Source of the DNA: a virus
Lineage: Duplodnaviria; Heunggongvirae; Uroviricota; Caudoviricetes
Reading direction: 5' to 3' (one strand)
Length of the DNA stretch: 18,305 nt
IMG/VR virus record: IMGVR_UViG_2529292906_000017
Positions 2,070-18,305 of this stretch are shown one piece after another (position 1 is the stretch's first letter; each line of letters begins with the position of its first letter). The position numbers and the translations under genes were made by a program. The notes below the pieces were generated by a model, which had not been told where the DNA came from, did no database searches, and saw only the letters and a list, made by a program, of their open reading frames with translations.

Positions 2070-2302
2070 ATGAAATCAAAAGACACCCTAAAGTGGTTCC
2101 CTGCGCAGCTTCCTGAAGTCAGAATTATCCTAGGGGATGCTGTAGTGGAAGTAGCAAAACAGGGAAGACCTATCAATACCAGAACATTGCTTGATTACAT
2201 TGAAGGAAACATAAAGAAAAATCATGGCTGGATAACAAAGAATTATTACAAACAGCGATATCAGTTCTTAAAGACAACCAAAATTTAAATGGTAAAATGT
2301 AA
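2070..2302 (+). pseudogene. ydfK: YdfK/YnaE-family cold-shock-induced protein with an apparent 1-bp contraction in an A run
   Basis: N-terminal part MKSKDTLKWFPAQLPEVRIILGDAVVEVAKQGRPINTRTLLDYIEGNIKK is in the frame of track ORF 2037..2288. A second open frame (KSWLDNKELLQTAISVLKDNQNLNGKM, stop 2300..2302) joins it only if the A5 run 2217..2221 were A6, giving 77 aa. Confidence 0.55.
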
Positions 2303-3882: not shown

Positions 3883-4190
3883 TACGCAAGCCTCACAATA
3901 TAGTTAAATGCGATGTTTTTGACGGTGTTTTCCGCGTTACCAGCAGCGTTAACGGTGATGGTATGTCCATGTGAACCAATCGCAACGGAGTGCGTATGAG
4001 CACCAATACCGACAGTATGTGCGTGTGCACCTGCGCTTGCAGCAGTACCCGATACAGAGTGCGTATGAGCGCCTGCAGAAGAAGTGTTAACACTGTATTT
4101 AGAATAATCAGGTGATCCACTTCCCGGAGCACCACTGGAACCACCTGAAACAAATGTCATCGAATGGGTATGTGCACCGGCTGTCCCCAT
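3882..4190 (-). pseudogene. stfQ: C-terminal remnant of side tail fiber protein (Stf) with GAHTHS repeats
   Basis: 102-aa ORF with repeated GAHTHS motifs, ending [11 protein letters not shown] as in lambda Stf C-terminus. Only about 100 codons remain; the upstream part is replaced by a J fragment in another frame. Confidence 0.75.
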
Positions 4191-5437
4191 GCATTTACCG
4201 CCCGGACTGTCAGCCTGTAATTTCCCAGCGCCAGCTGCGTGAAGCGATATGTGGTTTCCGTCGTCCGGGCCGTGCTGACCAACCGCTCACTGCCGTCGTC
4301 CGCTGCCACGGTCAGGCGAAGCATAAAGCTCACCCCCTTCACCACCTTCGGCGTGTCCCAGCGCGCCAGCACCTGGTATTCCCCGCTGTCTGCGGTGACT
4401 TCTGCGGTCAGGTGCTGAACTGCTGGCGGCGTGACACCATTCACCGTGCCGCTCTGGTCACCGTCAAAGTGCGCCCCGTTATCCACGATGGCTTCTTTCT
4501 CCGGTACATGCTGCACGGCAGTGATGGCATACGTACCGTCATCGTTCTCACGGATACTCACACAGCGGAACAGGCGCTGACGCAGCGTCGGCAGCTTCAG
4601 CCCCCACACGCTGTACTCGGCAACGCCGTCAGGAACCCGGCTCACTTTCACCTTCACGCCGTCGGTGACGGACTGGACCTCCACGCTCACCGGATTACCC
4701 TGCCCGTCAACCAGGCTTATCAGCGTGGTGCCGGAGGATGGCAGCGTGATTTCACGGTCGAGCGTCAGTGTCCGCGTCTGGCTGTTCACCGCCAGCACGC
4801 GCCCGCCGATGCTGATCCCCGCATAGTCATCATCACAGATTTCAATGACATCACCTGGTACATGGCGAAGCCCTTCGGCACCCACGCTGAAGTCCACGGT
4901 CTGCGTTTCCAGCAGTTCCGTTTTAATCAGCCACAGCCCGGCTCGGTGCGCCTGCCCCCGCCTGGTACAGCCAAAGGCATCCATCTTCGTGACGTTACGA
5001 CCGTAACGGGCAATGGCCTGCGTGTCCTCCACAAGCTCTGTCGCCGTCTCCCAGCCGTTATCCGGGTCAATCCAGTTCACCTCAACGGCATTATGGCGGT
5101 CCTTCAGGGCGCTGAAGCTGTAGCGGAACGGCGCGCCATCATCCGGCATCACCACATTACTGCGGTTATAGGTCCACACCTTATCTGATGGTCGGTCCTG
5201 CACGAACGTCAGCGTCTGCCCGTTCCATACCGGCATACAGCGCATCGCCGAGCAGAAATCACTGAGAACATCCCACGCCTTACGCTGTGTGGTCAGCCAG
5301 GCATTACAGGTGATGCGCGGCTCCGTGCCGCCAAAACCGTCCGGCACCGACTGGTCGCAACACTGGCCGATGACATACAGCGCCCATTTATCCACATCTG
5401 CCGCACCAAGACGTTTACCCATGCCGTAGCGCGGGTG
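4157..5437 (-). pseudogene. Internal fragment of tail tip / host specificity protein J (lambda gpJ-like)
   Basis: Translation from HPRYGMGKRLGAADVDKWALYVIGQ to [11 protein letters not shown] matches lambda J mid-region closely. The first 29 residues of the 455-aa track ORF are an out-of-frame read of Nu1 DNA, and the C-terminus diverges 7 codons before the stop. Confidence 0.8.
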
Positions 5438-6913: not shown

Positions 6914-7086
6914 TCAGATTAAATTAATCTTGACATCATAGCTTTCAAGACCCGTCATTTTTTCCCGTGCGGTAAACTGAATACTGGTAACTTCTTTCCC
7001 GGTCTTTTTCTTAAGTTCAATAATTTTTTTGTTATATATTCAGAAATATCTGCTTCTGCTTTTGTTTTTAAGTTTTCAATATTCAT
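6914..7086 (-). pseudogene. gnsB: GnsA/GnsB-family protein with an apparent 1-bp contraction in a homopolymer
   Basis: From ATG at 7084..7086 the frame gives MNIENLKTKAEADISEYITKK and stops at 38 aa. A second frame reads IIELKKKTGKEVTSIQFTAREKMTGLESYDVKINLI to stop 6914..6916. They join into a 57-aa GnsB only if the T7 run 7024..7030 were T8. Confidence 0.65.
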
Positions 7087-7257: not shown

Positions 7258-7412
7258 TCAACTCAAGAGCCTTATTGCTGCTTCCAGAATTTCTTCTGAA
7301 GTAACATGTCGATCCGCGGCTACATAAATGACTTTATGATCTCCGGTCAGAGATGGAAACCCTGCGGCCATTACAGTAAGGTGTGTTTTTCGCCATTTGG
7401 ATATTCACGCAT
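7258..7412 (-). pseudogene. ynfN: YnfN-like cold-shock-induced small protein with an apparent 1-bp contraction in a homopolymer
   Basis: ATG at 7410..7412 gives MREYPNGEKHTLL then stop. With one extra A in the run 7386..7390 the frame reads MREYPNGEKTHLTVMAAGFPSLTGDHKVIYVAADRHVTSEEILEAAIRLLS (51 aa), stop 7258..7260. Confidence 0.5.
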
Positions 7413-7529
7413 GATGGTGTTAACTCCAGTCATCGCTGGCACTACCACTGCTGGTTCAGAGTTAAAAAAACTATGATTTTTTCATGATGTTACCGTAGTA
7501 TGTGAGTATCCATCGAATAGACACCAAGC

Positions 7530-7969: not shown

Positions 7970-8330
7970 AATTATTACCTTTTGAAGAAATTAGCCCTTG
8001 GGCAGAATGGTCCGAAAAAAATATCAGAGAGAAAAACCAACAAGGAAATCTCAAGAGGTACAAATAATAAAATTATAACAATGACTGCTTCAGATAAATT
8101 TGTAACAAACCAGAACACCATTAACGCATGATTAACCACCCATAGCAAGGATTACTTTTGTAAAGAAAAACACAGCAATGAAAGAATAGCTTTATTTATT
8201 AATAAAACGTGTCATTCTGATTAAGACCTTTTATCTTACCCTTAAGATTTCAGGAATTTTGGCTCATGGAAGAGTCCTTTTTATTTAAATTTTACATTCC
8301 GCGATGTAAATGTTCCGATTTAATATTACC

Positions 8331-9353
<1,023 letters not shown>

Positions 9354-10362: not shown

Positions 10363-10517
10363 TGTGGTGCTTTTTGTGGGAGTCATCCACTTACGCACTT
10401 TGTTTTGCCATGCCAGCAGTTAGCTTCTGCTGTAAAACTATTCATGCAGCAAACCTGCACTTCACCACAATGGTTAGCATACTTTTCCTGATTAAGATTT
10501 TGGGTAATGACTCCAAC

Positions 10518-10895
10518 TTATTGATAGTGTTTTATGTTCAGATAATGCCCGATGACTTTGTCATGCAGCTCCACCGATTTTGAGAACGACAGCGACTTCC
10601 GTCCCAGCCGTGCCAGGTGCTGCCTCAGATTCAGGTTATGCCGCTCAATTCGCTGCGTATATCGCTTGCTGATTACGTGCAGCTTTCCCTTCAGGCGGGA
10701 TTCATACAGCGGCCAGCCATCCGTCATCCATATCACCACGTCAAAGGGTGACAGCAGGCTCATAAGACGCCCCAGCGTCGCCATAGTGCGTTCACCGAAT
10801 ACGTGCGCAACAACCGTCTTCCGGAGCCTGTCATACGCGTAAAACAGCCAGCGCTGGCGCGATTTAGCCCCGACGTATCCCCACTGTTCGTCCAT
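10518..10895 (-). CDS. insB: IS1 InsB transposase domain (InsAB' C-terminal part)
   Basis: [65 protein letters not shown]... matches IS1 InsB. Confidence 0.8.
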
Positions 10896-10914
10896 TTCCG
10901 CGCAGACGATGACG

Positions 10915-11214
10915 TCACTGCCCGGCTGTATGCGCGAGGTTACCGACTGCGGCCTGAGTTTTTAAATGGCGGAAAATCGTGTTGAGGCCAACGCCCATAA
11001 TGCGGGCAGTTGCCCGGCATCCAACGCCATTCATGGCCATATCAATGATTTTCTGGTGCGTACCGGGCTGAGAGGCGGTGTAAGTGAACTGTAGTTGCCA
11101 TGTTTTACGGCAGTGAGAGCAGAGATAGCGCTGATGTCCGGCAGTGCTTTTGCCGTTACGCACCACGCCTTCAGTAGCGGAGCAGGAAGGACATCTGATG
11201 GAAATGGAAGCCAC
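10915..11214 (-). CDS. insA: IS1 InsA with altered C-terminus from a shortened A-run at the frameshift site
   Basis: [43 protein letters not shown]... is InsA (zinc finger plus HTH), but the ORF ends ...[18 protein letters not shown] (99 aa) instead of ...RHLKNSGRSR (91 aa) because TTTAAAAACTC has A5 where IS1 has A6C. Confidence 0.8.
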
Positions 11215-11413
11215 GCAAGCACCTTAAAATCACCATCATACACTAAATCAGTAAGTTGGCAGCATTACCAGATTTTGCCAAATATGCTAGCCATTGTTTC
11301 ATGTATTGGACCTCCTTACTTTTTATTAAAGAGATCCAATATTCACTACTCTGTCCGTATCTCTACTCAGGCATCAGCCTTCTTCGTTATCGTATACAGA
11401 CGAGCGATGAATT

Positions 11414-12464: not shown

Positions 12465-12502
12465 TTTCTTAACGTCGGGTATACAAAGCCCATCGTTGAA
12501 AA

Positions 12503-12531
12503 ATTTTATCCATATTTTTTGAAAAATGCAA
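12503..12531 (-). promoter_or_regulatory. Putative Q-dependent late promoter (pR'-like)
   Basis: On the minus strand TTGCAT (12526..12531), a 17-nt spacer, then TAAAAT (12503..12508), immediately downstream of the Q stop and upstream of the terminator hairpin. Arrangement resembles lambdoid pR'-tR'. Confidence 0.35.
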
Positions 12532-16149: not shown

Positions 16150-17037
16150 AGACACCATATACTTTGTGACGGTCTGAATCGCCACGGATAATCTAGACAC
16201 TTCCGAGCCGTTGATAATACTGGTTTTCATATTCTGTCGGTGACATCTGATCGCTGGAACCATGCCGACGCTTACTGTTATAAAACATTTCGATGTAATC
16301 AAAAATATCGCTGCGGGCTTCTTCCCGCGTTCCGTAGATCTTTTTCTTTATCCGTTCACGTTTCAACAACTGGAAAAAACTTTCTGCAACCGCATTATCA
16401 TGGCAGTTACCGCGACGGCTCATGCTACCCTCCAGGCCGTGTGATTTCAGGAACGACTGCCACTCATGGCTTGTGTACTGACTGCCCTGATCCGAATGAA
16501 CCAGCACCTTTTTTTCGGGATTACGCCGCCATACAGCCATCAGCAGTGCGTTCAGGACAATGTCCTTTGTCATCCGGGATTGCATGGACCAGCCGATAAT
16601 TTTGCGTGAGAACAGATCAACAACAACGGCAAGATACAGCCAGCCTTCGTGGGTCCTGATGTAGGTTATGTCCGTTACCCAACGCTCATCAGGAGCATCC
16701 GGATTGAACTGTCGCTGGAGCCTGTTGGGTGACACGATACTGGCCTCGCCTTTACGTGCCCGCGGGCTTCGGTATCCGACCTGAGCCTTTATTCCGACAC
16801 GTTTCATCAGTCTCCAGACTCTGTTTACTCCGCACTGTTGCCCGCTGTCACGCAGATCCAGATGGATTTTGCGATAACCATAGACGCATCCCGATTCCAG
16901 CCAGAACTGTTTAATCTGTCCTGTCAGTCTCAGGTCTGCCTGATGGCGTTGTGAATGCGGCTGCTGAAGCCAGGCGTAAAAACCACTGGGATGAACATCC
17001 AGCACCCGACAGAGCAGGCGAACAGGCCAGCAACAGG
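16150..17037 (-). mobile_element. IS600-like IS3-family element, truncated where the next IS begins; outer boundary approximate
   Basis: Contains a complete orfB; its reading frame continues open upstream to 17037, where the TGAACCGCCCCGG terminus of the next IS begins, so orfA and the other end lie outside the window. Confidence 0.7.
16193..17005 (-). CDS. IS3-family transposase OrfB (IS600-like), DDE integrase domain
   Basis: 270-aa ORF (GTG start) with ...WVTDITYIRTHEGWLYLAVVVDLFSRKIIGW...HSDQGSQYTS...CHDNAVAESFF, the DDE motif region of IS3-family transposases. Confidence 0.85.
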   Translation of the reverse strand: MLDVHPSGFYAWLQQPHSQRHQADLRLTGQIKQFWLESGCVYGYRKIHLDLRDSGQQCGVNRVWRLMKRVGIKAQVGYRSPRARKGEASIVSPNRLQRQFNPDAPDERWVTDITYIRTHEGWLYLAVVVDLFSRKIIGWSMQSRMTKDIVLNALLMAVWRRNPEKKVLVHSDQGSQYTSHEWQSFLKSHGLEGSMSRRGNCHDNAVAESFFQLLKRERIKKKIYGTREEARSDIFDYIEMFYNSKRRHGSSDQMSPTEYENQYYQRLGSV

Positions 17038-17091
17038 TGAACCGCCCCGGAAATCCTGGAGACTAAACTCCCTGAGAAAGAGGTAAACAGG

Positions 17092-17418
17092 ATGACTAAA
17101 AATACTCGTTTTTCCCCCGAAGTCCGTCAGCGGGCGATTCGTATGGTTCTGGAAAGTCAGGATGAATATGACTCACAGTGGGCGGCAATTTGTTCCATTG
17201 CCCCAAAGATTGGCTGTACGCCGGAGACTCTGCGTGTCTGGGTTCGCCAGCATGAGCGGGATACCGGGGGCGGTGATGGTGGGCTCACCACCGCTGAACG
17301 TCAGCGTCTGAAAGAGCTGGAACGTGAAAATCGTGAACTGCGCCGCAGTAACGATATCCTTCGCCAGGCTTCCGCTTATTTTGCGAAGGCGGAGTTCGAC
17401 CGCCTCTGGAAAAAATGA
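17092..17418 (+). CDS. IS3-family transposase OrfA (HTH plus leucine zipper)
   Basis: 108-aa [60 protein letters not shown]...[27 protein letters not shown]. Confidence 0.85.
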
Positions 17419-18305
17419 TGCCACTGCTGGATAAGCTGCGTGAGCAGTACGGGGTCGGACCGGTATGCAGCGAACTGCATATTGCCCCGTCAACGTATTA
17501 CCATTGTCAGCAACAGCGACATCATCCGGATAAACGCAGTGCCCGTGCGCAGCACGACGACTGGCTGAAGAGAGAGATACAGCGCGTATACGATGAAAAT
17601 CATCAGGTGTACGGTGTGCGTAAAGTCTGGCGTCAGTTGTTACGGGAAGGAATCAGGGTGGCCAGATGTACAGTGGCGCGCCTCATGGCGGTTATGGGAC
17701 TTGCCGGTGTTCTCCGGGGTAAAAAGGTCCGCACTACCGTCAGCCGGAAAACCGTTGCCACAGGTGACCGCGTAAACCGTCAGTTCGTGGCAGAACGTCC
17801 TGACCAGCTGTGGGTGGCTGATTTTACTTACGTCAGCACATGGCAGGGCTTCGTCTATGTGGCGTTTATCATTGATGTGTTTGCCGGATACATCGTGGGG
17901 TGGCGGGTCTCATCGTCTATGGAAACGACATTCGTGCTGGATGCGCTGGAGCAGGCGTTGTGGGCCCGTCGTCCGTCTGGCACCATCCATCACAGCGATA
18001 AAGGCTCTCAGTATGTGTCACTGGCCTATACGGAGCGACTAAAAGAAGCCGGATTACTGGCATCAACAGGGAGTACAGGCGACTCGTATGACAACGCGAT
18101 GGCTGAGAGCATCAATGGTCTTTACAAAGCGGAGGTAATACACCGTAAGAGCTGGAAAAACCGTGCAGAAGTGGAACTGGCCACACTAACGTGGGTGGAC
18201 TGGTATAACAATCGACGATTGCTGGGAAGGCTGGGCCATACTCCTCCGGCAGAAGCAGAAAAAGCTTATTATGCTTCCATCGGAAACGATGATCTGGCAG
18301 CCTGA
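17415..18305 (+). CDS. IS3-family transposase OrfB (IS629-like), DDE integrase domain
   Basis: 296-aa ORF with ...[31 protein letters not shown]...[10 protein letters not shown]...[16 protein letters not shown]. Confidence 0.85.

Follow-up and report, generated by a model that had tools for sequence, protein, structure and literature searches.

An IS1 copy with a shortened slippery tract in the Qin prophage of an Escherichia coli draft genome: most probably a base-calling or assembly error

Insertion sequences of the IS1 family are about 768 bp long and end in imperfect inverted repeats of about 23 bp (GGTRATG...). On insertion, IS1 makes target duplications of 8 or 9 bp, and its transposase InsAB' requires a -1 ribosomal shift at the motif AAAAAAC (PMC12428005). 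When this A6C motif is engineered to GA2GA3C, insA and insB become fused (PMC12428005). The original prediction for the locus described here relied on this dependence of InsAB' on A6C and a -1 shift, and agrees with the literature (PMC12428005).

We analysed a stretch of 18,305 nucleotides, called the window below, which is the Qin cryptic prophage of E. coli. It is identical to contig AIFV01000014.1 of the GenBank draft GCA_000249595.2 over an overlap of 17,391 nt. In its left part the gene order is ydfJ, ydfK, pinQ, tfaQ ... gnsB, ynfN, cspI, rzpQ, rrrQ, ydfR, essD, ynfU, and it resumes past the IS1 with cspB, cspF, ydfT, ydfU, rem, hokD, relE, relB; ynfU and cspB converge, and the element lies between their 3' ends.

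Elsewhere the window departs from K-12. Positions 4071-5435 are unlike the K-12 segment (stfQ/nohA); like PEC1009 and many other strains, the window has fragments there whose annotations are host specificity protein J and terminase small subunit. Homology to the Qin of K-12 stops inside ydfV (window 16175-18305), and the flxA-dicB-ydfE part of the prophage is missing from the window. Instead, ydfV is followed by the remnant of an IS3-family orfB (16193-17005, minus strand, 270 aa) and by an IS3-family element with orfA at 17092-17418 and orfB at 17415-18305, annotated as IS1203-like in related genomes.

The IS1 itself has the anatomy of its family. Its two ends, GGTAATGACTCC... on the plus strand and GGTAATGCTGCC... 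on the minus strand, agree with the IS1 end consensus at every position, where the chance expectation is 0.00, and they are identical to each other at 18 of 23 positions. With 767 bp and two perfect ends, the element has the size and termini of an IS1. An insA frame (zinc ribbon and HTH) is followed by an insB frame (DDE); their Pfam matches are PF03811 and PF12759 for insA, along with PF03400, and positions 1-80 and 100-199 of NF033558 match the 99-aa and the 125-aa open reading frame, respectively. The octamer AGATTTTG stands on both flanks, in keeping with the 8- or 9-bp duplications of the family. It is present as a single copy at the empty site in K-12 MG1655 (L002 13196-13203) and in PEC1009 (L001 19002-19009), from which it follows that the insertion and its duplication are genuine. 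The length, the clean ends, the 8-bp duplication and the 99-aa read-through product listed in the original prediction were all recovered by measurement, as was the A5C found in place of A6C (Table 1). One family trait differs: the A6C motif with insB in the -1 frame is absent from the element as deposited and present in its 768-bp relatives.

Table 1 Features of the IS1 element and shortened A/T runs in the window.
Feature	Coordinates	Strand	Remarks
IS1	10503-11269	minus	767 bp deposited, 768 bp expected
IRL (insA-proximal inverted repeat)	11247-11269	-	0 mismatches to the IS1 end consensus
IRR (right inverted repeat)	10503-10525	+	0 mismatches to the IS1 end consensus
Target-site duplication, left copy	10495-10502		octamer AGATTTTG
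Target-site duplication, right copy	11270-11277		octamer AGATTTTG
A5 run in TTTAAAAAC	10959-10963	- (T5 on + strand)	A6C expected
insA frame as deposited	10915-11214	-	GTG start at 11214, 99 aa
insB (DDE) frame	10518-10958	-	open, intact; +1 relative to insA, not -1
ATG-started insB piece	10518-10895	-	125 aa
A5 run	2217-2221		A6 in 4/4 other genomes; inside ydfK
T5 run	7386-7390		T6 in 15/15 other assemblies; inside ynfN
A5 run	12499-12503		A6 in 12/12 other assemblies; intergenic, upstream of ydfT
T7 run	7024-7030		T8 in most genomes; inside gnsB (called 43 aa, not 57)
A7 run	7464-7470		A8 in 4/5 references
T6 run	7477-7482		T7 in 5/5 references
A7 run	8015-8021		A8 in references; intergenic, cspI-rzpQ
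T7 run	8742-8748		T8 in 5/5 references; inside rzpQ (140 aa, not 165)

Read along the element strand, the slippery region is CCATTTAAAAACTCAGG. Because A5 replaces A6, InsA reads through to 99 aa and insB falls into the +1 frame. The zinc ribbon and HTH of the 99-aa product are intact and its last 15 residues are out of frame; the true insA product is expected to have 91 aa. In the deposited sequence, slipping by -1 yields nothing but the 91-aa InsA again, and it would take a +1 shift to make InsAB' (231 aa). The original prediction that such a copy, if real, makes no transposase of its own is therefore sound as far as the mechanism goes. Its premise most likely fails: the A5 is present in the sequence as deposited, but eight to nine similar losses lie nearby, and the shortened run would be one more product of a systematic undercall, the kind of artefact that the original prediction had itself given as a possible refutation.

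The loss of one A has a further effect on the local sequence. In CAT TTA AAA ACT (window 10952-10966, element strand), the insA frame now contains the classical slippery heptamer U_UUA_AAA. Slipping there by -1 would restore exactly the 91-aa wild-type InsA, so that a genuine A5C copy could still make some normal repressor.

As a rule, slippage during transcription becomes appreciable only when a run is clearly longer than five. It is extremely improbable that the A5C is real and the copy still autonomous, whether ribosomes enter insB by shifting +1 or -2 or RNA polymerase slips and adds A residues to the transcript. insB does have a fully open frame, and shifting by +1 would yield a 231-aa InsAB'; however, no +1 shift signal is evident in the A5C region, the heptamer U_UUA_AAA favours slipping by -1, to the stop of InsA, and all that speaks for an artefact counts against autonomy too. 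Both +1 recoding and transcriptional slippage were rejected, the only good slippery heptamer leading by -1 to the stop of InsA. The 'programmed frameshift' CDS that PGAP assigns to one A5C copy is an automatic label and not evidence for autonomy.

To place the A5 run among its surroundings, we aligned the unique DNA of the window, about 14 kb, with K-12 MG1655. The two differ by eight indels; all are one-base deletions in the window and all fall within A/T runs. They shorten 3 of the 27 runs of length six, 2 of the 7 of length seven and all 3 of length eight, and they alter none of the 208 A/T runs of four or five bases. The loss rate rises accordingly with run length, from 0% (4-5 bases) through 11% (6) and 29% (7) to 100% (8). 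No insertion and no change in a G/C run was seen in the unique DNA aligned to MG1655.

Four further complete genomes from different laboratories (PEC1009, EC416, MDK6L1 and NCTC9038) give the same picture. Over 9-15 kb, no more than 6-11 substitutions separate each of them from the window, yet the same deletions appear; against PEC1009, eight of eight indels are again one-base losses in A/T runs. Taking the five independent E. coli genomes together, every indel in the window's unique DNA is a one-base deletion in the window within an A/T run of 6-8 bases, and 8-9 such losses, besides that of the IS1 run, are spread over the 18-kb window. Four of them break the frames of conserved Qin genes, namely ydfK, gnsB, ynfN and rzpQ. 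The three six-base runs at 2217, 7386 and 12499 are short in the window only, the short form being found in 0 of 4-15 other assemblies.

The eight-base runs behave differently. Those at 7024, 8015 and 8742 have seven or eight bases across many public assemblies; the cause may be a sequencing error that recurs widely or, the prophage being in decay, tracts that are truly hypermutable. The truncated 140-aa rzpQ, considered as a marker private to the source assembly, had to be dropped, as it is indexed in 919 blocks of a public collection. The argument therefore rests on the six-base runs, the class to which the A6 of IS1 belongs, the length of the eight-base ones being polymorphic, or else unreliable, in many assemblies. 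Undercalling of six-base runs is private to the source assembly and strikes about 11% of them.

Immediately past the window end, the contig holds the chromosomal gene rspB, which lies outside the prophage. Compared with MG1655, it has one T too many in a T3 run (L011, reverse-complement position 19150), which splits it into pieces of 207 and 144 aa. This is a further discrepancy in homopolymer length, in this case an insertion.

These losses bear the marks of undercalling: they are single-base, go in one direction, touch homopolymers only and become more frequent with run length. They also produce private short alleles and break conserved genes, with the caveat that the eight-base runs are short elsewhere too. 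A mismatch-repair-deficient mutator lineage was rejected, given eight one-directional indels against six substitutions in 15.4 kb. Eight losses per 15 kb would in addition amount to ~2,000 frameshifts per genome, which is not biologically credible.

The source assembly was presumably produced by 454 sequencing. Its accession prefix AIFV belongs to the same series as the drafts of the DEC collection (DEC9A is AIGK and DEC10D is AIGS), in which its place would make the strain DEC6A. A study that used DEC drafts cautioned that frameshifts in them might stem from errors of sequencing or assembly (PMC5592225).

We infer that the IS1 run is probably one more instance of this systematic undercall, seeing that so many other long A/T runs nearby are short by one base. 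It is very probable, judging from the sequence comparisons above, that a mistake in consensus base calling or in assembly has turned A6 into A5 and that the element is an ordinary IS1. The source assembly systematically loses a base from A/T homopolymers with at least six bases. IS1 has just one homopolymer of five or more bases, the A6 tract, and this is the only place in the element open to undercalling. In the cell, the element would then be a normal IS1 of 768 bp that makes the 91-aa InsA by default and InsAB' through a rare -1 ribosomal slip on A_AAA_AAC. The locus itself is a true IS1 insertion into the Qin prophage, of recent date and without other damage, in a draft genome of E. coli.

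This explanation can be weighed in numbers. An undercall rate of 11% per six-base run, set against a prior of ~0.1% for a real A5, gives odds of ~100:1 for the artefact, within a range of roughly 25:1 to 300:1 that reflects the wide interval on 3/27. Most A6 runs in the source assembly are correct, with 3 of 27 affected, and the conclusion is probabilistic. In addition, mutations do arise preferentially in homopolymers, and some of the eight-base differences could be genuine polymorphisms.

A true one-base deletion in the A6 tract has to be considered, arising by replication slippage and leaving a non-autonomous copy that lacks InsAB'. We regard it as quite unlikely. The deposited sequence does read A5, and slippage in homopolymers is a real class of mutation. 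A copy of this kind could also still be mobilised, as immobile IS1 copies have been moved in trans by InsAB' in experiments (PMC12903888). However, the change is indistinguishable from the 8-9 neighbouring losses, which are not plausibly all real, and the window IS1 is otherwise without defect: compared with the nearest 768-bp IS1, it shows no other sign of decay.

How often the A5C form occurs elsewhere bears on both readings. The exact 71-mer spanning A5C was found in 70 of 9,111 IS1-bearing records of complete E. coli genomes, to be compared with 69,182 IS1 places; the form thus accounts for at most ~0.1% of IS1 copies, a rarity that argues against a real deletion. On the other side, A5C is present in as many as 70 records, and the copies examined represent no fewer than four different IS1 backbones. 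An exact look-up of the 99-aa InsA variant found it on 12 contigs, with four loci in one assembly and two in another; in GCA_000249595.2, this look-up returned the window locus only. We also searched for an IS1 at the exact window position, where the run could be read in a sibling strain: it is present in 0 of 5,426 complete E. coli genomes, and the 22 records with full coverage are three-piece matches whose IS1 lies elsewhere.

Several chromosome-scale assemblies hold multiple A5C copies at different loci (L012-L015 in GCA_045581715.1, L006-L007 in GCA_045609385.1, L008 and L010). Small additional indels mark these copies; one is a 2-bp deletion at element positions 486-487, and further indels confined to IS1 in those assemblies include a 1-bp deletion and a 2-bp insertion near 498-535.

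One of these assemblies lends some weight to a real deletion. At locus L013 (GCA_045581715.1), the one such locus compared with K-12, an A5C copy lies between unique flanks that are clean, with 0 of 25 runs of six or more bases changed relative to K-12. Errors in the flanks were considered as a companion of A5C in other assemblies and do not hold for L013, where the odd indels are confined to the IS1 repeat. That confinement speaks against biology nonetheless, as it points to poorly polished repeats. The A5C copies elsewhere are independent events and are best explained as errors in poorly polished repeats, and a few of them may be real deletions.

Copies such as these would also be accounted for if the A5 were genuine and the loss or gain of one A were a recurrent, reversible on/off switch that makes repressor-only IS1 copies. 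We consider this very unlikely. Were it true, intact-ended repressor-only copies would persist and spread by mobilisation in trans, which would fit the scatter of A5C copies over several IS1 backbones in E. coli genomes.

A 767-bp A5C IS1 also lies on a plasmid of E. coli ET450 (NZ_CP100959.1, L004, 219842-220608). PGAP labels it as an intact CDS with a 'programmed frameshift' and a WP_ accession, and this annotation hides that the shift needed is +1 and not -1.

If the A5 were real after all, the window copy would encode a 99-aa InsA variant that keeps its DNA-binding domains and probably its function as a repressor. As an IS1 it would be non-autonomous and repressor-only, with intact ends that still allow mobilisation in trans by the transposase of other copies. 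Even so, a defective copy of so well known an element would be of modest significance. Under the favoured explanation, a base-calling or assembly error, there is no new biology at the locus: it is a standard IS1 at a neutral intergenic site of a cryptic prophage.

The case has a practical side. The sole homopolymer of IS1 is also its functional switch, and homopolymer errors in draft or poorly polished sequences create IS1 copies that are apparently transposase-dead. Annotation pipelines may hide such A5C copies behind a 'programmed frameshift' label or call them pseudogenes. In any census of active versus defective insertion sequences, run lengths should be checked against the reads.

Compared with known systems, the window IS1 is 99.7% identical to 768-bp IS1 copies. 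Its nearest sequenced relative is the 768-bp IS1 of E. coli 2018-02-2CC (NZ_AP021896.1 658535-659302), identical at 766 of 768 positions: the window copy differs by the missing A in A6C and by a synonymous C>T at element position 262. The K-12 isoform IS1A is more distant from it. The missing A is very probably owed to the assembly and not a property of the element, to judge by the error pattern around it. In this respect the window resembles the known homopolymer errors of flow-based or single-molecule sequencing and of poorly polished repeats, which are likewise single-base changes restricted to homopolymers; both share one-way changes, a rate that rises with length and broken conserved genes, a likeness at the level of the assembled sequence. 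With the IS1 family, the element has in common the inverted repeats, the zinc-ribbon/HTH frame of insA and the DDE frame of insB, and its slippery-site context and 8-bp target duplication are as in known IS1. Finally, engineered IS1 mutants establish that the choice between InsA and InsAB' depends on the A run, on its length as well as its identity (PMC12428005). Those mutants gain a base and make transposase constitutively, whereas the change in the window loses a base and would abolish it.
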